From assembly GCA_964432115.1 (NCBI GenBank), contig CAYSMC010000024.1, positions 1-62,020 on the forward strand: a DNA stretch of 62,020 bases. The letters are read 5' to 3'. This document shows positions 17,803-38,668 of the stretch, piece by piece. The DNA comes from an uncultured Pseudomonadales bacterium (GTDB lineage: Bacteria > Patescibacteriota > Microgenomatia > UBA1400 > PJMF01). The translations under genes and the position numbers were made by a program. The number at the start of each line of letters is the position of its first letter. The stretch's first letter is position 1. The notes below the pieces were generated by a model. The model searched no databases. It was given only the letters and a program-made list of their open reading frames with translations, and was not told the DNA's origin.

Positions 17803-20004
17803 ATGAAAAAACAAGTTTTAATTCCCAAAATTTTTTTAGTATTTCTTCTTTTTTTATTTTCTTTGATTTCAAGCTTGTTGTTGAGCAAACCTATTTTGGC
17901 TAAAAGCTACAGCATTGATCAAACACAAATTGAAATATTTTTGCAAAGTGATGGTTCGGCCGAAGTGATCGAACAACGAGTTTTCAATTTCCAGGGTGAT
18001 TATCGTTTTGTGTATCAGAAAATTCCTTATCAAAACGAGCAAAGCTTGACTGATTCTGGTCGAAGCGAGCCATATTTGTTAAATAATTTTGAACTTTGTG
18101 AAGTTGATCAAAGCAGTGGAGTTAATCAGTACGATTGCTATGAATTTTTGGAACAAAATCAGGTAAATTTAAGCGAAGCGCGCAATAATCCAGAAAAAAC
18201 TTTTTACGTGGAGCTACGGCCAAACGAATATTTTTTACAATGGCACTATCAAGCCCTCAATGAAAAGAAAATTTTTGAGCTGCGATACGAAGTGGAAAAT
18301 TTACTCACTCAACAAAATAATGTTGCCGAATTATATTGGCAATTTGTTGGCGATGATTGGGAAGTAGCTCACGGTATCATTGATATTACCGTGTGGTTAC
18401 CAGCCAATTTTTTAGCTTCACAGTTAAAAGATGTTCAAGCTTGGGGTCATGGTCCTTTAGCTGGAGTAGTTAACATTGATGCTTTACCCTCTGATAATGG
18501 TTTATATGGTGTTCATTTTACAGCAGCTGCTTTACCCATTGCTCAATTTTTGGAGGGCAGAGTAATTTTACCCATGGAAGTGTTAATTGATGCGGAAACT
18601 TTACCAGTAGGTAAGCTCAATCGGCAAGAGATTAGTGAGCAAGAACAGCAATTTATTGCTGAAACAGAGGCAAAGTTAAAAAGAGAAGAGACAATAGCCA
18701 AAATTATATTTGTAATTGCTTCATTGTTGAGTATTTTAGGCATGATCTTTTTTGTTAAAAGTTTATTAGCTCATCTGAAATTAGCCAAGGAGGAACGCTT
18801 ACAAGCACTACCGGGTGTTTGGGAGCCACCTAGTGATTTAGAACCGGCTTTGGTTTATCAGTTGTTGCATAAGACTAAAAAGTTAAATCCTTCAGTTTTT
18901 ACTGCTACTGTTTTGTCGCTAGTACACAAAAAAGTGTGTCGGATTGTGCGCAGTGACAAAAAAGAAGGTTTTATCAAAAAAGACTATCGTTATTTTTTAG
19001 AGTTAACTGACAAAGCAGGCCAAGCAAAGTTATCAGTTATTGAACAAGAAGTTTTTGATTTTCTTTTTAATAAAGTGATCAAGTTATATGGTAAATATTA
19101 TCACCGATCCAGTAAAAAGTGGCTTAATGAACAAAAATTTAATCAGCTTTGGCGGAAAGCTAATCTCAAAGGTAGTCATGAAAATTTATTGAAGGCAAAA
19201 GAACAAACTCGCCAAAACTTGGATTTACAAGATATTGCTAAATATACCAAAACCTATGCTAGTAGTAGTTACCTTTTTTTTCAGGGTTTGGAAAAAAAAG
19301 CTTTCGCAGCTAATTTGGCTGATGGCTATTTTGATCAAAAGTCTCATCAATATGCTAGTGGTTTAAGCAATCTCAAGCTGTTTATTGCGCCTGTAATTAG
19401 TTTTTTGTTAATTATTATTATTGCTAATTTTTCAGAAAGCATTGATTCCTTGATCAGTGAAACTTGGTTGTCGATGACTTGGCCCTTGATTATTGCTAAT
19501 GTGTTATTTGGCACCAGTGCTGCAGTAGTGATGTTAATTTTGCAATACAGCAGTGAAAAAAGAAGCGAAAAGGGTCATCGCGAAGCTGAACAATGGTTGT
19601 CTTTTAAAAAACATTTAAAAGATTATAAAAAGACGAAAAATTATGCCATTGATTCAATTATTCTTTGGGAAAAATATTTAGTTTATGGCACTTTATTTGG
19701 TGTATCCATGAAGGCTTTATCTCAGTTACCGGTTAAATTTGAAGATTGGTCTAGAGCGGATCAACAGGCTTTGGTTAATTATTGGGGAATGTCCAGCGTT
19801 AATTTGAGTCAATCAGCCATAATAAATATGAATAATTTCAATTTGGGTAGTATCACTCATTCTTTGAATTCTTTAGGCAATGCTTTTAATACCATTAGCA
19901 GTGGGGCATCGCGCAGTTACGGAGCCAGTGGTGGCGGTTCTAGTGGTGGTTTTTCTGGTGGCGGTGGTGGTGGCGGCGGCGGTGGTGCTGGGGGTGCTGG
20001 TTAA
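17803..20004 (+). CDS. DUF2207 domain membrane protein
   Basis: Signal peptide, ELYWQFVGDDW, WGHGPL, WEKYLVYG, Gly-rich C-terminus GGFSGGGGGGGGG. Confidence 0.9.
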   Translation: MKKQVLIPKIFLVFLLFLFSLISSLLLSKPILAKSYSIDQTQIEIFLQSDGSAEVIEQRVFNFQGDYRFVYQKIPYQNEQSLTDSGRSEPYLLNNFELCEVDQSSGVNQYDCYEFLEQNQVNLSEARNNPEKTFYVELRPNEYFLQWHYQALNEKKIFELRYEVENLLTQQNNVAELYWQFVGDDWEVAHGIIDITVWLPANFLASQLKDVQAWGHGPLAGVVNIDALPSDNGLYGVHFTAAALPIAQFLEGRVILPMEVLIDAETLPVGKLNRQEISEQEQQFIAETEAKLKREETIAKIIFVIASLLSILGMIFFVKSLLAHLKLAKEERLQALPGVWEPPSDLEPALVYQLLHKTKKLNPSVFTATVLSLVHKKVCRIVRSDKKEGFIKKDYRYFLELTDKAGQAKLSVIEQEVFDFLFNKVIKLYGKYYHRSSKKWLNEQKFNQLWRKANLKGSHENLLKAKEQTRQNLDLQDIAKYTKTYASSSYLFFQGLEKKAFAANLADGYFDQKSHQYASGLSNLKLFIAPVISFLLIIIIANFSESIDSLISETWLSMTWPLIIANVLFGTSAAVVMLILQYSSEKRSEKGHREAEQWLSFKKHLKDYKKTKNYAIDSIILWEKYLVYGTLFGVSMKALSQLPVKFEDWSRADQQALVNYWGMSSVNLSQSAIINMNNFNLGSITHSLNSLGNAFNTISSGASRSYGASGGGSSGGFSGGGGGGGGGGAGGAG

Positions 20005-31086: not shown

Positions 31087-32064
31087 ATGAATAATGCCGA
31101 AAAAAGCAGAGCCAACATTAATAATGGTCACTCTATCCCTTATTGGTCGGCTACTTTGATAGAACGGTTTGCTGGTAAAATCTTATCATTCGCTGATAGA
31201 TTCTTATTAAAAGATGATGAGGAAGTAGATAAAACCCAGCAATTAGTTAATCAGTCCAGGTATAGATTGATTAAAGAAAGAGCTTTGGGTTTAGCAGAAG
31301 ATGCAACAATTAAAGTTGCTGGAGAGCGATTTCTAAAACAGCATAATTTACCCAGATATAATAAAGTTAAATGGCCCTTAATAGAATTTTTAGAAAATTC
31401 TCAAGAACGTCTGGATAATTTTGTGAGTCCAACTGGTTTGTATTTTCCCGAGTTTATTAACCTAAAAACTGAACATAGAATTTATGCGTTGAGCCAAACT
31501 AGAGATGAAGTTGAAAAGTTTATTTTACAAATGTTGGAAGACGAGCAATGCACACCTGAAGATTATTTATTTGTGTTATCAGAATTTTGGCCCAACGATT
31601 ATGGGGGCAGTGTCATAATTAATAAAGCAGGTGATGTGTCGATAGAATTGATGAAAGGATCACACACGCCACTAACTACAGGTAGGGGTAAAATTTTGCT
31701 AACTGCTAAGAGTGATTGTTATACTAAATTATTAAAATTTATAGAATATCAAGAGATCGACCCAGACTTACAAACAGAGCTTCGTCAGACCATTAATAAG
31801 ATTCTGGCCTTAATCCCCAAAAAATCAGTGCTGGTTAGTAAACAAGTAACGGGCAGGTTTCAAGAGGTAATAGACAATGGTGATGGGCCATCTGTAAAAC
31901 TTCCTTATGCTGGTTATTTTGAATTTATTTTATCCAGGTTAAAAACCGATTCAACATTAAGACCATTTTTTATTGATGCGCGAGTTGGCAAAGCAGGAGA
32001 TAAATATTATTCTGTGAACAAAAATTTGTCAGAGGAAAATAATCTATCTCAGATGGCCCGTTAA
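31087..32064 (+). CDS. Hypothetical protein
   Basis: 325-aa ORF, no recognised motif. Confidence 0.7.
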   Translation: MNNAEKSRANINNGHSIPYWSATLIERFAGKILSFADRFLLKDDEEVDKTQQLVNQSRYRLIKERALGLAEDATIKVAGERFLKQHNLPRYNKVKWPLIEFLENSQERLDNFVSPTGLYFPEFINLKTEHRIYALSQTRDEVEKFILQMLEDEQCTPEDYLFVLSEFWPNDYGGSVIINKAGDVSIELMKGSHTPLTTGRGKILLTAKSDCYTKLLKFIEYQEIDPDLQTELRQTINKILALIPKKSVLVSKQVTGRFQEVIDNGDGPSVKLPYAGYFEFILSRLKTDSTLRPFFIDARVGKAGDKYYSVNKNLSEENNLSQMAR

Positions 32065-32089: not shown

Positions 32090-32160
32090 GGGGCGGTAGT
32101 TCAACGGTAGAATCAAGGTCTCCAAAACCTTTGATGAGGGTTCGATTCCTTCCCGCCCTG
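32090..32160 (+). tRNA. tRNA-Trp(CCA)
   Basis: GGGGCGGTAGTTCAACGGTAGAA..AAGGT-CTCCAAA-ACCTT..GAGGGTTCGATTCCTTCCCGCCCTG; TATAAT just upstream. Confidence 0.95.
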
Positions 32161-32161
32161 C

Positions 32162-32201
32162 ATTATAAAAATAGAGCTAAATTTAGCTCTATTTTTATAA
32201 T
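32162..32201. terminator. Perfect 40-bp palindrome directly after tRNA-Trp
   Basis: ATTATAAAAATAGAGCTAAA|TTTAGCTCTATTTTTATAAT. Confidence 0.7.
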
Positions 32202-32208
32202 TGATAAG

Positions 32209-32365
32209 TGAGAGGAATCGAATGCCGGAGCAATAGGGCAATCTAAAGCCCATATTGCGAGGCGGGGTCGACGGGCGCGACCGAGTGAGTAGAAGCTTCA
32301 CGAGAGTGTGAAGCTTCGTAACGAACGACCGAGCGAACCGGTGACCGATTCCTTCCCGCCCTGCA
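32209..32365. other. GC-rich multi-hairpin element ending in a 20-nt duplicate of the tRNA-Trp 3' end
   Basis: CGATTCCTTCCCGCCCTGCA at 32346-32365 equals 32143-32162; outer AGGAATCG/CGATTCCT pairing; three internal hairpins. Confidence 0.8.
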
Positions 32366-32604
32366 AAACCATTTACTCAATAATTATTTCTCTATTTTTA
32401 TCTACTAAAATCCACTTCAAATTAGTTATTTATTTATTAGGTGGTTGATAATTATTAGATATTTATATATCAAATGATATAATAAAGGTTATCAGGGCAG
32501 TAAAAAGACTTGATCTTCTTTTTAAAGCAAAAAGAAAGATGAGACTACTTTTTTCTACCTGAGCACATTAACTTCTAAGCAAAAAAAATCAAACCTAGGA
32601 GGTT

Positions 32605-32820
32605 ATGATGGATGAATTTTTTCAAATAATGATTGTTTTTGTTGGCGTTGGTCTGATAATGACCATTCAAAGCTTTAGGTTTATGCTGGAACGGGCTGGT
32701 CTTTTAATAGCTCTTTTTAGCTTATTTGCATGGTGCGTCCCAATGGCTGGTTGGCTTTTTATGTTTTATGCGGCAATCATGCAAACTATGGAAGACTTGG
32801 GAATGGAACCTCCACTCTAA
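32605..32820 (+). CDS. Small hydrophobic membrane protein
   Basis: AGGAGG SD, hydrophobic 71-aa ORF, followed by a terminator. Confidence 0.7.
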   Translation: MMDEFFQIMIVFVGVGLIMTIQSFRFMLERAGLLIALFSLFAWCVPMAGWLFMFYAAIMQTMEDLGMEPPL

Positions 32821-32846
32821 TCAGCTTAGATGAAAGAATGTGAATG

Positions 32847-32880
32847 AAGCGCCCTTTTAAAAGAAGGCGCTTTTGCTTTT
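32847..32880 (+). terminator. Intrinsic terminator
   Basis: AAGCGCC..GGCGCTT followed by T-rich tract. Confidence 0.7.
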
Positions 32881-32897
32881 GTTTTTATTAAATAACC

Positions 32898-32930
32898 AAA
32901 ATAAGTTCCAACATCCTTCACCAATCCCTC
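32898..32930 (+). repeat. Cassette-boundary repeat R1
   Basis: AAAATAAGTTCCAACATCCTTCACCAATCCCTC. Confidence 0.92.
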
Positions 32931-32990
32931 TAGCATATAAAAAGAACTAAAGGTTATTCTTTTTTGATACATGTTAGAATTAATTAACTT

Positions 32991-33401
32991 ATGAATGAGG
33001 TAGATAATGATAGGGAGAGTCCCAAACATCCTAATAATTTATCAATTATTGATCTTTGTAACATATATTTAGAGATTATTGGTCAAAGTAAGAAACATAG
33101 TGAAGATAATTGGAATACTGCTATCGATCAGCTACTGCAGATTTATGAAGACCAGCCCGATTTATTGAAAAGAGACACCATTCGTTTGTGGAATGAAAAA
33201 CCAGATATTATTATTTCTTTCTTGGCAAGAATAAATTCAACTAAAAAAACTATTGGTATGGAATCAGGATTAGATATTAAAACTGGAGATGAAGAAGCTT
33301 CAATTATGAACGAAATCGATGCTAAATTAAATGAAGAAAAAGAAAATGCTTTTCTCAAAGGTATTCTAAGTGGAAGAATCAAAGGCTCCACATCTTATTA
33401 G
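32991..33401 (+). CDS. Hypothetical protein (cassette cargo)
   Basis: 136-aa ORF preceded by TGtTAGAAT. Confidence 0.7.
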   Translation: MNEVDNDRESPKHPNNLSIIDLCNIYLEIIGQSKKHSEDNWNTAIDQLLQIYEDQPDLLKRDTIRLWNEKPDIIISFLARINSTKKTIGMESGLDIKTGDEEASIMNEIDAKLNEEKENAFLKGILSGRIKGSTSY

Positions 33402-33418
33402 TCTGCAAGAATTAATTT

Positions 33419-33904
33419 ATGATAATAGTTACTAATTCACCATTAGAAAGATGGGAAGAATATAAACAATTACGGTTAGAATCGCTTAGCGACTCACCTC
33501 AGTCGTTTCTAGATGATATTGACAAAACTCAGGAGATATCAAAAGAAGAGTGGCAAAAAAAGCTTGAAAACATATATTTTGCCGAAATGGATGGTAAGTG
33601 GGTAGGAATGATTGGTGCTTATCAGGACGAAAGATCTAAATTAAATCACATTATGAAAGTTGTAAGTTTTTATGTATCTCCAAAATATCGTGGTCATGGA
33701 ATAGGGAAAGCACTTTTGTCAGAAGTTATTGATAAATCTAAGAAAGTTAAGGGAGTTAAGAAGTTAGAATTAGGTGTAATTACCACACAGGAAGCAGCTT
33801 ATCAGCTATATTTAACTCTTGGATTTAAAAAAGTTGGTGAACAAAAGTATTCAGTTAGGGTTGGAGATAAGTATTTTGATGAATATTTAATGGAACTTTA
33901 TTGA
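33419..33904 (+). CDS. GNAT family N-acetyltransferase
   Basis: YVSPKYRGHGIGKALL, LYLTLGF. Confidence 0.92.
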   Translation: MIIVTNSPLERWEEYKQLRLESLSDSPQSFLDDIDKTQEISKEEWQKKLENIYFAEMDGKWVGMIGAYQDERSKLNHIMKVVSFYVSPKYRGHGIGKALLSEVIDKSKKVKGVKKLELGVITTQEAAYQLYLTLGFKKVGEQKYSVRVGDKYFDEYLMELY

Positions 33905-33908
33905 GATT

Positions 33909-33942
33909 AAACCAAGTTCCAACATCCTCTACCAGTCCCTGC
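33909..33942 (+). repeat. Cassette-boundary repeat R2
   Basis: AAACCAAGTTCCAACATCCTCTACCAGTCCCTGC, 4 nt after GNAT stop. Confidence 0.92.
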
Positions 33943-34003
33943 GAAATATATTAAGTCAAAGCGTTCAGCACTATTAATCTCTAATCATTTATAATAAATT
34001 TAT

Positions 34004-34531
34004 ATGGAAAAAATATATTTTGTTCGTCATGGGGAGAGTGAAGCAAATGTAGAGCGAAAATTTGCTGGGCAAAAAGAGGATTCTCCATTAACTGAGCTTG
34101 GTCGAGAACAAGCTAAACAAGCTGCTTTAGACTTATTGCATTACAATTATCAGATTGATCGAGTTATTTCTTCACCGCTCGCAAGAGCTTATAAAACTGC
34201 GCAAATATTAATCAAAGAAGCAGGCTTGGATCTAGAAATTGAAATTGATCAAAGACTAGCTGAATATGATATGGGATCACTAACCGGCACCACTTATCAC
34301 AAAATAAATTCAAGGGAGCTGATAAGTGCCGAGGGAGCAGAAGACCCTCAGGCATTTCAAGGTCGTGTACAAAGTTTATTGGATGAACTTAGTCATGGGG
34401 ATAAAAATGTATTACTAGTTAGTCACGCGGGTGTGGGGAGAATAATTGAGGTAGCTAAAAAAAGTTTAGATCCTAATGATTTTTATGATCTTGAAGCTTT
34501 GCCAAATGCAAAAATTATTGTCCTTTATTGA
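34004..34531 (+). CDS. Histidine phosphatase family protein
   Basis: RHGES, SSPLARA..TA, E..MG, VSHAG. Confidence 0.93.
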   Translation: MEKIYFVRHGESEANVERKFAGQKEDSPLTELGREQAKQAALDLLHYNYQIDRVISSPLARAYKTAQILIKEAGLDLEIEIDQRLAEYDMGSLTGTTYHKINSRELISAEGAEDPQAFQGRVQSLLDELSHGDKNVLLVSHAGVGRIIEVAKKSLDPNDFYDLEALPNAKIIVLY

Positions 34532-34541
34532 TTTTTTTGAG

Positions 34542-34573
34542 TAAGCAAGTTCCAACATCCTTCCCGCCCTGCA
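34542..34573 (+). repeat. Cassette-boundary repeat R3 (hybrid with exact tRNA-Trp 3' end)
   Basis: AAGTTCCAACA + TCCTTCCCGCCCTGCA (16 nt identical to 32147-32162). Confidence 0.93.
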
Positions 34574-34634
34574 AATGATGCATTGTGATACAATTAAATT
34601 ATTGATAAAGCCAATTTATTAAATTAAGGAAAAC

Positions 34635-34946
34635 ATGACAAGAACTAAATATTCACCAGAAATAATGAGGGAGGGTATTGAGGAGATGTTACAAAGAAAT
34701 TTTTCTTTAAAAACATATCAGAGTCCTGAATTAAACCAAGCGATTGGCAGATCAATTCAAGAAAAAGTAGCTGAAGGCTTTAATTGGGGAACTATTATTT
34801 ATCCAGTATTTGTCCCGTTTTTTGTTTCTGATGATCCTGAAATTAAGAAAAATAGGCAGCAATTCATAGAAGAACATGGTGGAGAAGAAAATATTGAATT
34901 TTATTTAATTCGCAGAACGGGTGAAATCATTGTTTTGACAAAATAA
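34635..34946 (+). CDS. Hypothetical protein (cassette cargo)
   Basis: AAGGA SD; TAA stop lies inside repeat R4. Confidence 0.75.
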   Translation: MTRTKYSPEIMREGIEEMLQRNFSLKTYQSPELNQAIGRSIQEKVAEGFNWGTIIYPVFVPFFVSDDPEIKKNRQQFIEEHGGEENIEFYLIRRTGEIIVLTK

Positions 34947-34973
34947 GTTCCAACATCCTTCACCAGTCCCTGC
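34940..34973 (+). repeat. Cassette-boundary repeat R4
   Basis: AAAATAAGTTCCAACATCCTTCACCAGTCCCTGC. Confidence 0.93.
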
Positions 34974-35011
34974 TTGATAAAATTAATTCAATTTTAGAGG
35001 AAGATAGAGTA

Positions 35012-35353
35012 TCATTTCACAAATTTCAATTGCTCAGACGACCATCTTGGTATGTTAACTAGAACAAGCTTAAGTTCTTTTCCTTTAGACCAGTATTTTT
35101 CACCTTTCTTAAAATGGTAGAAGTCGCCTTTCTCAATAATAAAATTGCCAAATTCCGAGTGAATGACTCCAGAACCACTTAACACGTAGTAAATCTCTTC
35201 ACATTCAGTGTTTACAACTCTTTTCTGTTCTGGAAATCTTCCATTAATATATGCTATTGCAAAACTTACATCTTTACTTTGAGAGTCATACTCCCAAAAA
35301 ATACATTGATCAGAATTTATTTTCTTTTTTACCTGTGATTTTTTAATTAACAT
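35012..35353 (-). CDS. Cupin domain protein
   Basis: EEIYYVLSGSG..GDFYHFKKGEKY cupin motifs. Confidence 0.85.
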   Translation of the reverse strand: MLIKKSQVKKKINSDQCIFWEYDSQSKDVSFAIAYINGRFPEQKRVVNTECEEIYYVLSGSGVIHSEFGNFIIEKGDFYHFKKGEKYWSKGKELKLVLVNIPRWSSEQLKFVK

Positions 35354-35513
35354 AATTAAACTTGATTGGTTGGTATTTTAACGTTTATCACAGTTAGTCA
35401 TTATCTATGCTGTTGACATAACCAAGTAATACTTTTACAACAAAGCTGCTTTTAATATATCAAATCTTAAAGATTTATACGATAACCACTGTATGACACT
35501 CACGTTTTTTCTT

Positions 35514-35548
35514 AAAATAAGTTCCAACATCCTTTGTTAACCTTTGCA
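35514..35548 (+). repeat. Cassette-boundary repeat R5
   Basis: AAAATAAGTTCCAACATCCTTTGTTAACCTTTGCA. Confidence 0.9.
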
Positions 35549-35602
35549 AATACAAAAAAACTTGATTCTAAGTATCAAGCTCATAAGCTATAATTATTGA
35601 AA

Positions 35603-36168
35603 ATGTCAAATAATCGATTAATTAACTCTATTGCTATAAAACTTGTAGAAAAGCCTAGTCAAACACAAAAAAAACAAATTTTTAGACTCCAACAAGAAGT
35701 TTTTTCTTATATAGATGAAAAGGAAGCAAAAGAAGATTTTTATCATCCCGAATCAGCGCATGTTTTAGCTTATCTTGGTGATGACTTAGTTTCTTGGGCT
35801 GGCGTGCATATAAGTCAGCAAGTATTTCAAGATAAAAGTATTAAATTGGGTGGCTATGGAATTTGTACCCATACTAATTATCAGGGTCAAGGCATTGGTT
35901 CTTTAGTTTCCAAAAAGCCATGGAGTATCTTAAAAATAATGGGGTAGAGGTGGCATTTTTATCAGTTGATTTAGATAATGAATCATCAATAGCATTTCAT
36001 AAAAAGAACGGATTTGTGATGCTCCCACAGAAATATTCTTGGACAAATTCTAGTGGTGAGCTCAAGGAAGATAAGGGAGCAATGATTGCACCAGTCAATT
36101 CTCAAGAGTTATTCAACTATATCTTAAAAACAAACAAAGTTTTATATGTGGGCAATGGTTATTGGTGA
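35603..36168 (+). pseudogene. Frameshifted GNAT acetyltransferase (AAC(2')/Eis-like), split at an A5 run
   Basis: First ORF ends ..THTNYQGQGIGSLVSK; second frame continues AMEYLKNNG..FHKKNGF; one extra A at 35912-35916 would fuse them. Confidence 0.8.
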
Positions 36169-36171
36169 GTT

Positions 36172-36206
36172 AAAATAAGTTCCAACATCGTTCACTAATC
36201 TCTACA
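36172..36206 (+). repeat. Cassette-boundary repeat R6
   Basis: AAAATAAGTTCCAACATCGTTCACTAATCTCTACA, 3 nt after TGA. Confidence 0.9.
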
Positions 36207-36301
36207 AAATAAATTTTTAATTTACAGTTTTTCTATATCCTGATCTTAATGTCTCAAATAAAGATAATTTAATTGCATTTAAACTCTGATAAAATAAGAG
36301 T

Positions 36302-37174
36302 ATGAAAATAGTTGAAACAAAAACTTCCAAAGGAATAACATATAAAGGACTATTGTCCGTTCCCGAAAAGAATAGTAATAAGATTATTATTCACGTTCAT
36401 GGGATGGGAGGAAGTATTATCTATAACGATTTTTATGTCTCAATGCATGAAAAATATCCGCAGAATGCTTATTCGTTTTTAGTTGGTGAAAATCGGGGAT
36501 CAGAAATTATTAAAGGTTTTAAACGAGGTGATGAGTCTGTACTTTTAGGTAATGCTTTTGAAAGATTTGAAGATTGTGTGGAAGATATTCAGGCATGGAT
36601 CAACTTTGCTGTGGAAAGAGGATACGAAGAGATTTGGTTGCAGGCTCATAGTTTGGGTCCATCCAAAGTAGCTTATTATCTAAATCAAAAAAACCCTAAA
36701 AACATTAAGGGGGTTATTTGGTTAAGTCCTTCAGATATAATTGGTCTAGTTCGCTATTCTGAAATGATAAATGAACATAAGAAGCTAATGAAAGAGGCAA
36801 AAGAACTAATAAATAGAGGAAAAGGGAATGAACTTCTTTCTGATAAGTTATGGGGAGAATATTTACTGAGTGCAAAGACTTACATTGATTTTTTTGAAGA
36901 GACAGCTAATACGGCAATCTTTAATTATAGAGATAATTCTTTGGGTTGGCAGGTTGTAAATGATATAAGTGTGCCTGTTTTTACTATCACAGGGACTGAG
37001 GATGATGGCATTAAACCAGTTATTGATCCTAAAGAAGCAATGGTGCTATTGGAGTCAGAATTAAAGAATTCCCCCAGAGTTAAAACTGTTGTCTATGAGG
37101 GTGCTGAACACAGTTTTAATGGTTTTGAGCTAAGAATAGTCGATGATGTTTTGGAGTTCATAAGTAAGGAATAA
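36302..37174 (+). CDS. Alpha/beta hydrolase (DUF1749-like)
   Basis: HVHGMGG, AHSLG nucleophile elbow, GTEDD, GAEHSF. Confidence 0.88.
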   Translation: MKIVETKTSKGITYKGLLSVPEKNSNKIIIHVHGMGGSIIYNDFYVSMHEKYPQNAYSFLVGENRGSEIIKGFKRGDESVLLGNAFERFEDCVEDIQAWINFAVERGYEEIWLQAHSLGPSKVAYYLNQKNPKNIKGVIWLSPSDIIGLVRYSEMINEHKKLMKEAKELINRGKGNELLSDKLWGEYLLSAKTYIDFFEETANTAIFNYRDNSLGWQVVNDISVPVFTITGTEDDGIKPVIDPKEAMVLLESELKNSPRVKTVVYEGAEHSFNGFELRIVDDVLEFISKE

Positions 37175-37227
37175 TTTTAATTCGTTTAACTGAAAAGGCT
37201 AGGTAAACAAATACCGTAATAAAACCG

Positions 37228-37260
37228 AAAATAAGTTCCAACATCCTTCACTAAGCTTTG
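37228..37260 (+). repeat. Cassette-boundary repeat R7
   Basis: AAAATAAGTTCCAACATCCTTCACTAAGCTTTG. Confidence 0.9.
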
Positions 37261-37371
37261 TTTGAAGGATTAACCCTCATGTTTTTCTATAATTGACTGC
37301 TGAATGTTGAAAAAGCTTCAACAGCGTTAGCAATTTCTGATTAATTAATACATTGTGATCTATTTTGATTT

Positions 37372-38550
37372 TCAGTTAAAAGTATGTATTATTAAATTTA
37401 TCCAATTTTCTTTAGTATTTTTTTGTTTTTTTTGATAATTTAAATATAAATTAAATACATGTATAACTAGCGCTAAATAGAATAATACCTCAAAAGATTC
37501 TCTCCAAATAACTAAAAATCTAAGAGTTGTAAAAAAATCTGGTAAAATTCCTAAATTATGATATAGGTCAATGAGTGACGTCCCCCGGTCTGAAAATAGG
37601 CTACGATCTGCATAGGGGTTAAAAATAAAAGTTGGTAATAAATATAATACTTCTTGACCACGAAAACAAAATAAGTTTCTCCAAGCTATTTGCTGTTGAT
37701 TTTGTGTTGGCTTACTCTTTTTTAAATATTGTCCAATGCGCCAACTGGTGAAGCCGTAAACAAAGGCAAAGATATATAAAAGAATAAAAAATTCATTTAT
37801 TTCTTTCATATTGTGAATATTTAACTCATTTTGGTAGCTATTGTTTGTTTTTACTCGCATATTTAGTAGACGCTGTCCCCAAGAAATTTCCTCGCCAATT
37901 AAAAAAATAAATATAAAAATTAAACAAACAAAAATAATTCTTAAGAAAGGATTGATTTGTCTTTTTTTGGTGTTTTTTATAGTTGCCAAAAGAACGCTAA
38001 ATATTAATCCAATGCCTAATACGACAACCTGCAGCCATTCCATAAAATTATCATCATCAGTTCCACCAAAATTAGCACTAATTTTTATAAAAACTTCAGA
38101 ATTATAGATGTAAATATAAAAACACAATAAAAGAAAACTGAAGAAAAATAATTTTGCCCAATTTTTTTTGATAATTTTCCAACCAGTAGTCAATATTTTT
38201 AGGAAATAACTAAAAATTAATAAATCAAGTAAGATTGCTTGATTAAGACCAAAATTTTTGGTGACAAATGTTGGATGTGTAAAAGCATCTATTCCAAATA
38301 AAATAATGACTAACGTAAGTGTTATTGGTAAAAAATAATGATTATTAAATTTAATTAACCACCAACCAGAATTTAGATTTTTTTTAGGAAAAAAACTCAC
38401 AAAAGTTATAGATGCTAATAGTATTGCAATAAGAAGTCTTAAATCAAATAGTAAATACTCACCAATTATACCTCGATAGTTAAGTAGCTCAATTATGCCG
38501 AGAAGAATAATTAAAAAATAGGCAATAATCAATGCTATTTTAATTTTCAT
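37372..38550 (-). CDS. Polytopic membrane protein (EEISWGQR..ELNIHN family)
   Basis: Multiple TMs, very AT-rich. Confidence 0.75.
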   Translation of the reverse strand: MKIKIALIIAYFLIILLGIIELLNYRGIIGEYLLFDLRLLIAILLASITFVSFFPKKNLNSGWWLIKFNNHYFLPITLTLVIILFGIDAFTHPTFVTKNFGLNQAILLDLLIFSYFLKILTTGWKIIKKNWAKLFFFSFLLLCFYIYIYNSEVFIKISANFGGTDDDNFMEWLQVVVLGIGLIFSVLLATIKNTKKRQINPFLRIIFVCLIFIFIFLIGEEISWGQRLLNMRVKTNNSYQNELNIHNMKEINEFFILLYIFAFVYGFTSWRIGQYLKKSKPTQNQQQIAWRNLFCFRGQEVLYLLPTFIFNPYADRSLFSDRGTSLIDLYHNLGILPDFFTTLRFLVIWRESFEVLFYLALVIHVFNLYLNYQKKQKNTKENWINLIIHTFN

Positions 38551-38633: not shown

Positions 38634-38668
38634 AAAAGAAGTTTTAACTTCTTTCACCACTCCCTGCA
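38634..38668 (+). repeat. Cassette-boundary repeat R8 (diverged)
   Basis: AAAAGAAGTTTTAACTTCTTTCACCACTCCCTGCA, colinear with R4. Confidence 0.75.

Follow-up and report, generated by a model that had tools for sequence, protein, structure and literature searches.

A tandem array of small mobile cassettes 3′ of tRNA-Trp in a 786-kb bacterial genome, bounded by tRNA-hybrid sites probably left by large serine recombinase elements

Organization of the tRNA-Trp locus

The window analysed, a stretch of 62,020 nt, is the entire contig C24 of a genome (G000) comprising 785,920 bp in 42 contigs. It carries a tRNA-Trp gene followed on its 3′ side by a terminator-like hairpin, a GC-rich element, a 19-nt copy of the tRNA end and seven short units, each of which terminates in a 29-nt site (Table 1). 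The hairpin, the GC-rich element and the tRNA-end copy together form a module of about 200 bp. Directly 5′ of the tRNA, at 31087–32064, lies the gene for a 325-aa protein (P0001) that is syntenic in congeners with and without arrays; given this conserved synteny and the lack of a Pfam match, the protein was rejected as a candidate recombinase.

The 11-mer core of the sites, AAGTTCCAACA, has seven exact copies in the window, all on the forward strand and each just 3′ of a gene; they begin at the first positions of R1 to R7. When up to one mismatch was allowed, 11 matches were found against 2.21 expected. The eighth, degenerate copy (R8) follows a 392-aa ORF without a Pfam match on the reverse strand (37372–38550). 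In a scan of the 786-kb genome the family was found at the tRNA-Trp locus only. The sites are direct, asymmetric hybrids in which a conserved arm, consisting of AAGTTCCAAC plus 13 nt, is joined to the terminal ~6 nt of the tRNA next to them. The parts common to tRNA-Trp and the sites are the T-loop GTTCGAT and the last nucleotides CCCTGC.

A Pfam scan of the window identified no recombinase gene in or beside the array. The recombinase matches of G000 comprise three tyrosine recombinases (contigs C39, C5 and C29) and two large serine recombinases (LSRs; C31 and C10), none of them on C24. Contig C29 carries tandem ~35-nt repeats (including CCGGAATCACTGTGCG) in its first ~90 bases, with a partial tyrosine recombinase gene at the opposite end.

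Table 1. Features of the tRNA-Trp locus in the window
Feature	Positions	Strand	Description
tRNA-Trp(CCA)	32090..32161	+	ARAGORN; Rfam tRNA, 63 bits
Palindrome / bidirectional terminator-like hairpin	32163..32201	.	Perfect; directly after the tRNA; left end of the ~200-bp module
GC-rich structured element	32205..32346	+	~60% GC, ~140 nt
tRNA-Trp 3′-end copy	32347..32365	+	From the T-loop onward, GATTCCTTCCCGCCCTGCA; attB-like geometry
Cassette 1	32366..32902	+	71-aa ORF 32605–32820; no Pfam match
R1	32903..32931	+	Canonical length; tail CCCTCT, two mismatches to CCCTGC
Cassette 2	32932..33913	+	136-aa ORF 32991–33401; GNAT acetyltransferase 33419–33904
R2	33914..33942	+	Canonical: AAGTTCCAAC + 13 nt + CCCTGC
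Cassette 3	33943..34546	+	Histidine phosphatase 34004–34531; 92% identical to a G005 cassette with other neighbours
R3	34547..34573	+	AAGTTCCAACA outer arm joined to 16 nt of the tRNA-Trp 3′ end; core at offset 10
Cassette 4	34574..34944	+	103-aa ORF 34635–34946; no Pfam match
R4	34945..34973	+	Canonical; right flank like the P′ arm of the tRNA-Trp-targeting LSR element L158
Cassette 5	34974..35518	-	Cupin-like ORF 35012–35353
R5	35519..35547	+	Degenerate tail CTTTGC
Cassette 6	35548..36176	+	GNAT split into ORFs 35597–35947 and 35920–36168; 92% identical to an intact G005 gene
R6	36177..36205	+	Degenerate tail
Cassette 7	36206..37232	+	Alpha/beta hydrolase 36302–37174
R7	37233..37261	+	Degenerate tail
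R8	38639..38667	+	Degenerate arm AAGTTTTAACT; canonical tail CCCTGC at offset 13

Cassette mobility

In the congener G005, a 3.4-kb contig bears four such sites, and its histidine phosphatase and GNAT cassettes are 92% identical to those of the window; their order and neighbours, including a Fic gene, differ. For the core genes 5′ of tRNA-Trp, identity between G000 and G005 is just 73%. This difference between species, ~92% for cassettes as against ~73% for core genes, suggests that these organisms trade small enzyme genes, among them acetyltransferases, phosphatases, hydrolases and kinases, via tRNA-anchored sites. In a genome as small as 786 kb, the site family accounts for a hypervariable hotspot of gene exchange.

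Contigs of two public sequencing runs, X1 and X2, carry a second, G005-like variant with the joints 32929→35555 and 36193→33909 and matching SNPs, and this reordering of cassettes indicates a coexisting G005-like strain. As read from these comparisons, the units are mobile cassettes that have been shuffled between species. The GNAT gene of cassette 6 (35597–36168) consists of two overlapping ORFs in the window. As its G005 homologue is one intact ORF of 188 aa and the coexisting variant in X1 and X2 has an extra G after 35916, the window copy appears to be frameshifted.

The site family in related genomes

The exact 13-mer AAGTTCCAACNTC is present in 57 of the 286 genomes of the order. Arrays were found 3′ of tRNA-Trp (G158, G200 and G276), tRNA-Pro (G157, G077 and G078) and tRNA-Ser (G053, G025 and G160), on the same strand as the tRNA. 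The left 20 nt of the sites are conserved and the last 6–10 nt match the 3′ end of the neighbouring tRNA, so that in other genomes the tail varies with the tRNA beside it (Ser, Pro, Gln, Asp and Tyr). Across all loci examined, 26 sites combined the motif (at most one mismatch) with a perfect match to the final 6 nt of the tRNA upstream. The tRNA-derived 6-mer stands at offset 13 after AAGTTCCAAC in 25 of these, R3 being the sole member at offset 10.

The first-pass annotation had taken R3 to be the direct link between the repeat family and the tRNA-Trp 3′ end, and the TCCTTC shared by the two to be a candidate crossover region. That repeats and tRNA are linked by recombination is borne out, the canonical sites all ending in the last ~6 nt of the tRNA. 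R3 itself is not what makes the link, since every canonical member already has the CCCTGC of the tRNA and the tails track the tRNA elsewhere. TCCTTC was likewise not upheld as the regular crossover, the position of the 6-mer in 25/26 sites placing the core at the extreme 3′ end of the tRNA.

Two established types of integration were considered and rejected. For a tyrosine-integrase tRNA island, no such gene lies at tRNA-Trp or at the related arrays, and long duplications (15–50 nt or more) would be expected; long tRNA-end duplications (16–19 nt) are confined to 32347–32365 and R3. For a Xer/dif-type system (IMEX, pdif), a reading of the 29-mer revealed no inverted arms.

LSR–Rep elements bounded by the motif

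In related genomes and in metagenome contigs, the motif bounds elements of 3.5–7.5 kb that carry an LSR and a Rep gene. The full unit was found at two of the 15 loci taken around single motif matches, L061 (in G044) and L062 (in G276). At both, the order is tRNA-Ser, a convergent LSR gene overlapping the tRNA 3′ end, a rolling-circle Rep gene, a few small ORFs and, ~4.4 kb from the tRNA, the motif with the tail of that tRNA-Ser. PHROGs assigned the respective proteins to ‘integrase’ (phrog_95; E 2e-69 and 5e-83) and ‘rolling circle DNA replication initiation’ (phrog_3419). LSRs 41–68% identical to the L062 enzyme are encoded in 16 of 286 genomes, and the exact 13-mer occurs in 9/16 LSR-bearing genomes as against 48/270 others, counts in which related genomes are not independent. 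Nine genome loci extended far enough on the far side, and eight of them showed this order of a tRNA, a convergent LSR gene overlapping its 3′ end, a rolling-circle Rep gene and a few ORFs, closed by a motif site that stands on the strand of the tRNA and has its tail. Further sites follow some of the elements, together with small cassettes in G158 (L071 and L056) and in numbers of two to three at each of L086, L104, L114, L124 and L158.

A metagenome search with a profile of 11 LSRs gave 80 contigs, and in 60 of them a tRNA abuts the LSR 3′ end (Ser, Gln, Asp, Trp, Pro, Asn, Tyr, Val and Leu). A site was called when the motif (at most two mismatches) was followed exactly 13 nt later by the last 6 nt of the tRNA (at most one mismatch). 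At least one site was present in 19 of the 34 contigs that extend at least 4.5 kb beyond the LSR-abutting tRNA. The wrong strand gave 1/34, an artefact from a single locus whose core is empty, and exchanging the tRNA cores among loci gave 0.04/34. That only 19 of the 34 loci have a site also counts against an LSR origin.

In the congener G005, an LSR gene (PF00239 + PF07508) abuts tRNA-Trp, and the tRNA in antisense provides its final ~20 codons. In G000, a 538-aa LSR ORF on C31 (L037, 549–2223) extends into tRNA-Ser(GGA) in antisense orientation. Related LSRs have the consensus C-terminus WRRRWDSNPR, for which the antisense strand of the tRNA 3′ end is the coding sequence; were such an element free, the LSR ORF would run into the AAGTTCCAAC arm instead of the tRNA. 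At L069, L070, L073, L079, L103 and L104, the LSR-targeted genes were called by ARAGORN as tRNA-Ser with the unusual anticodon ACT.

Other results from G000 count against an LSR origin of the sites. The LSRs on C31, beside tRNA-Ser, and on C10 are only 30–37% identical to those adjoining motif-bounded elements, and no Rep homologue was found in this genome. The C10 recombinase was rejected as the local enzyme, its 3′ end abutting neither a tRNA nor a site. In the 80 metagenome loci and in two of the four viral loci (L080 and L081), neither a terminal overlap nor a P arm beside the LSR 3′ end pointed to a free circular form (attP), and no empty attB pair was recovered; for this reason we infer the cut position and the P′ arm. 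A viral scan with a single protein found no relative.

Site geometry and proposed mechanism

Measured from GTTC to where the shared core ends, the distance is 22–24 nt in the tRNA and 27–29 nt in the site, and the cores common to site and tRNA range from 6 to 14 nt. Relative to the tRNA, the element-type arm has its GTTC(G/C)AA motif 5 bp more distant from the core, a shift seen in 10/10 exact pairs and likewise at L061, L062, L080 and in the window. For serine integrases (A118/LI integrase), Rutherford et al. (2013; PMC3783163) place the motif of the zinc-ribbon domain at bp 16–24 in attP and bp 11–19 in attB, and the 5-bp shift matches this published half-site rule. The sites resemble that model in having a common motif 5 bp further out in the phage-type site and a short core, and the LSR elements resemble it in having the integrase gene adjoin the site (PMC3783163). 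They differ from it in that the recombinase ORF crosses the site into the tRNA, in that the P′ arm, with the consensus AAAATCA...TTTT over 66 attL sites, is without a clear mirror of AAGTTCCAAC and in that the present system is known from sequence. The fixed shift provides a testable model for how one recombinase family uses many tRNA targets.

We consider it probable that the repeats are attR-type scars of tRNA-targeting LSR elements and that R3 is a secondary, non-canonical product. The recombinase would bind GTTC(G/C)AA, offered by the T-loop of the tRNA in attB and, 5 bp further out, by AAGTTCCAAC in attP, and would cut within the shared core at the extreme tRNA 3′ end (CCCTGC for Trp). 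The AAGTTCCAACATC... repeats would then each combine a phage- or plasmid-type half-site (P arm) with the terminal nucleotides of the tRNA targeted, and would be left by small mobile elements that insert at tRNA 3′ ends via their LSR. In the window, tRNA-Trp would be the attB-type target, behind which at least seven recombinase-less, mostly single-gene cassettes have been stacked by tandem accretion, most likely by an LSR. The LSR gene is absent from the tRNA-Trp array, and we infer the enzyme acting there, the cut position and the origin of R3.

A recombinase gene stands beside the attL end in the relatives (8/9 and 19/34 loci) and not in the window. Consistent with tandem accretion, the window has eight sites without a recombinase, and an element with further sites behind it occurs in G158 and in metagenome loci. 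We know of no LSR that takes attL as its target, which counts against LSR accretion of recombinase-less tandem cassettes. The sequence after R4 (34974–35000, TTGATAAAATTAATTCAATTTTAG) resembles the P′ arm beside tRNA-Trp in the metagenome element L158, which gives the R4 junction the look of a complete attP-type site.

The position of the repeats right after stop codons, with no recombinase gene nearby, would also suit a regulatory or terminator-type intergenic repeat, and R3 could be imagined as an assembly chimera. Explanations of this kind, which dispense with recombination, are very improbable and have been largely refuted: the sites have no hairpin, the tail tracks the tRNA, the motif bounds LSR–Rep elements at tRNAs in many genomes, and R3 is bridged by contigs of two runs.

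Relation to known systems

SCC and SCCmec elements are integrated at the 3′ end of the essential gene rlmH by the large serine recombinases CcrAB and CcrC. They are unlike the array in having a protein-gene target, a size of tens of kb, often a need for two recombinases and no T-loop-type motif. They are like it in forming tandem arrays that include recombinase-less pseudo-elements, each bounded by a repeat of the integration-site sequence, as generally known and as touched on in part of McMurdie et al. (2011; PMC3146451).

By our comparison, the closest published system is that of the Dehalococcoides ssrA islands, which are tandem and have a CcrB-like serine recombinase, DsiB, beside attL (McMurdie et al. 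2011; PMC3146451). Like the array, the islands described there stand in tandem 3′ of a t(m)RNA-type gene; a direct repeat of the 3′ end of that gene bounds each island, a further conserved motif lies immediately 5′ of the repeat, and some units without an integration module are discussed as cis-mobilisable and formed by accretion. Like the LSR elements, they carry a serine recombinase (~540 aa) on the reverse strand beside attL. The present system differs in targeting many different tRNAs rather than ssrA, in its core of ~6–14 nt rather than 20 bp, and in its autonomous elements of about 3.5–7.5 kb, which have a rolling-circle Rep and in which no DsiA/ParB-type module was seen; its cassettes are mostly single genes of 0.4–1 kb and its hosts have ultra-small genomes.

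Like integrons, CALINs included, the array consists of mostly single-gene, promoter-poor cassettes lying on one strand, with a recombination site at the end of each; also in common are a cargo of GNATs and small hydrolases and the occurrence of arrays with no integrase nearby. The resemblance is confined to layout. It differs from integrons in that its sites are tRNA 3′-end hybrids rather than imperfect palindromes and the associated enzyme is a serine recombinase, with no IntI. An integron reading was rejected, there being no PF00589 match near the array and, on reading the 29-mers with their flanks, no inverted partner of the core downstream. A full-text literature search gave no description of such arrays in candidate-phyla bacteria; the locus is a variant of already known tandem-accretion systems.

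The junction site R3

In R3, AAGTTCCAACA at 34547–34557 is followed immediately by the 16-mer TCCTTCCCGCCCTGCA at 34558–34573; the start at 34542 given in the first-pass annotation adds five unremarkable bases. The 16-mer has exactly three copies in the window, the others being at 32147–32162, in tRNA-Trp, and at 32350–32365, and the identities claimed for it in that annotation proved exact. With up to three mismatches allowed, three matches were reached in 0/100 shuffles (mean 0.20). Spanning support, also called for at that stage, was obtained from independent contigs of X1 and X2, which bridge R3 with zero differences over 864 nt (34108–34971), one of the two runs possibly being the source sample of the window. 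As far as contigs can show, R3 is no assembly artefact.

The sole difference between R3 and the canonical R4 is the inner segment between the common TCCTTC and CCCTGCA, where ACCAGT is replaced by the CCG of the tRNA. The outer P-arm motif is kept and the inner 13 nt (ATCCTTCACCAGT) are exchanged for the inner 10 nt of the tRNA (ATCCTTCCCG), so that the inner arm is tRNA-like and 3 nt short of canonical. The tRNA 6-mer, which canonical members have 13 nt after AAGTTCCAAC, is thereby found at 10 nt. This offset and the tRNA-like inner segment suggest that R3 is no direct product of the regular exchange. Of the earlier proposal that R3 is attR-like or a product of recombination at TCCTTC, its nature as a junction-type site has held, and that of a regular attR has not, given an offset that occurs in 1/26 sites. 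TCCTTC falls in the putative recombinase-binding part of the arm and not in the core. That site and tRNA-Trp have it in common seems in part coincidental; the arm in its general form is ATC-NTYC..., as in ATCGTCCCA at sites of Ser and Pro. As judged by these features, R3 is an atypical member of the family and not its archetype. It serves as a caution that the most tRNA-like repeat is the atypical one and misleads in the placement of the crossover.

A comparable hybrid was found at one related locus, in the congener G002, where a GC-module tRNA-end copy, one cassette and a hybrid with the same junction as R3 (AAGTTCTAACATCCTTCCCGCCCTACA) follow one another. Among the species representatives of the genome collection the R3 pattern was found in G002 only, and viral contigs gave 0 matches, in scans that may leave out the record of the window's own genome. 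This second hybrid, being also 3′ of a GC-module copy, could point to a regular rather than an accidental process.

If R3 is a secondary product, it would have come from a recombinase-independent event at the fortuitous 6–7-nt identity (A/T)TCCTTC, the partners being a canonical site and a tRNA-type 3′-end copy such as that of the GC-rich module. One such event would be a microhomology deletion that removed the DNA between a canonical site and a downstream tRNA-end copy, and tandem modules and cassettes in this site-then-module order exist in G034 and G002. Among the possible origins of R3, a microhomology deletion is favoured over block integration or a conversion patch, without decisive evidence. 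The deletions envisaged in the first-pass annotation, of 32163–34573 or 32366–34573, did not appear as a joint in contigs of X1–X4, although contigs drop rare variants and cannot show absence.

Block integration would make R3 a genuine site-specific attR. A circular block of cassettes 1–3 with AAGTTCCAACA+TCCTTCCCGCCCTGCA would have entered the 32347–32365 copy or the tRNA, by exchange inside the 16-nt identity, which would thereby have been duplicated. The block 32366–34557 is indeed flanked by exact 16-nt direct repeats, the same layout recurs in G002, and the right flank of R3 is weakly like the sequence after the tRNA-end copy of G006. We nevertheless regard such an origin as unlikely, with an offset of 10 in 1/26 sites that has neither attP-type nor attB-type spacing, a pattern shared by one other species representative only and by no viral contig, and, as weak evidence, no excision joint in contigs. 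The resemblance to G006 extends over ~35 nt after R3, which are also weakly like the sequence after the tRNA in G001; about 24/33 nt outside the core are alike between R3 and G006. Synteny with G006 beyond this point was rejected, as the following ORFs are unrelated.

A canonical site might instead have been patched by gene conversion or template switching from tRNA-Trp or a copy of it, with nothing rearranged. In favour of such a patch, R3 differs from R4 in the internal segment only, with identities on both sides, and the same strand holds three donor-type copies within 2.4 kb. The flanking identities of 6–7 nt each are very short for conversion, however, and the same patch would have to arise in, or spread to, G002, which makes this origin quite improbable.

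The GC-rich module and the tRNA-end copy

The hairpin that follows tRNA-Trp in the window also follows it in G034 and G075. Between the window and these two other genera, the ~200-bp module (32163–32365) is 85–92% identical and the GC-rich element itself 89–92%, as against about 64% for neighbouring genes. Folding of the GC-rich element gave z-scores of -4.7 and -5.6 on the two strands. Its 5′ end pairs with the T-loop/T-stem part of the tRNA copy, and the pairing varies with the tRNA: GGAATCG/CGATTCC in the window, GGATTCG/CGAATCC in G034 and G075, and ACAGGAC/GTCCTGT at tRNA-Pro. A second type of module occurs in G006, G002 and G034, and further types are present after tRNA-Ser or tRNA-Pro genes and many 29-mers in G053, G157, G077 and G274. 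At its left end the module is similar to the P′ arms of the LSR elements, which bear terminators.

One possibility is that the tRNA-end copy of the module is a spare landing site. A wider proposal, which we put forward as speculative and doubtful, is that ultra-small bacteria capture genes by an integron-like process based on a serine recombinase. If so, single-gene cassettes lacking a recombinase would be cut out and inserted anew at tRNA 3′ ends by an enzyme acting in trans, and the portable ~200-bp modules would be spare attB-like pads that protect the tRNA. Hybrids of the R3 type, whose spacing is nearer to attB than to attP, would be functional products of exchange between cassette and landing pad rather than accidents.

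Several identities were considered for the GC-rich element and rejected. Against Rfam it gave no match (E up to 1–5) besides tRNAs. As a part of the LSR–Rep elements, such as a single-strand origin, it was searched for with an nhmmer profile of 10 copies, and no match lay inside an element; the profile matched its own 10 copies (one twice, in overlapping loci) and one new copy after a site. It is not the tmRNA either, as ARAGORN finds no tRNA or tmRNA in the element and the tmRNA of G000 lies on contig C4. ARAGORN missed that gene, and the Rfam tmRNA model places it at 18184–18588 with 98 bits.
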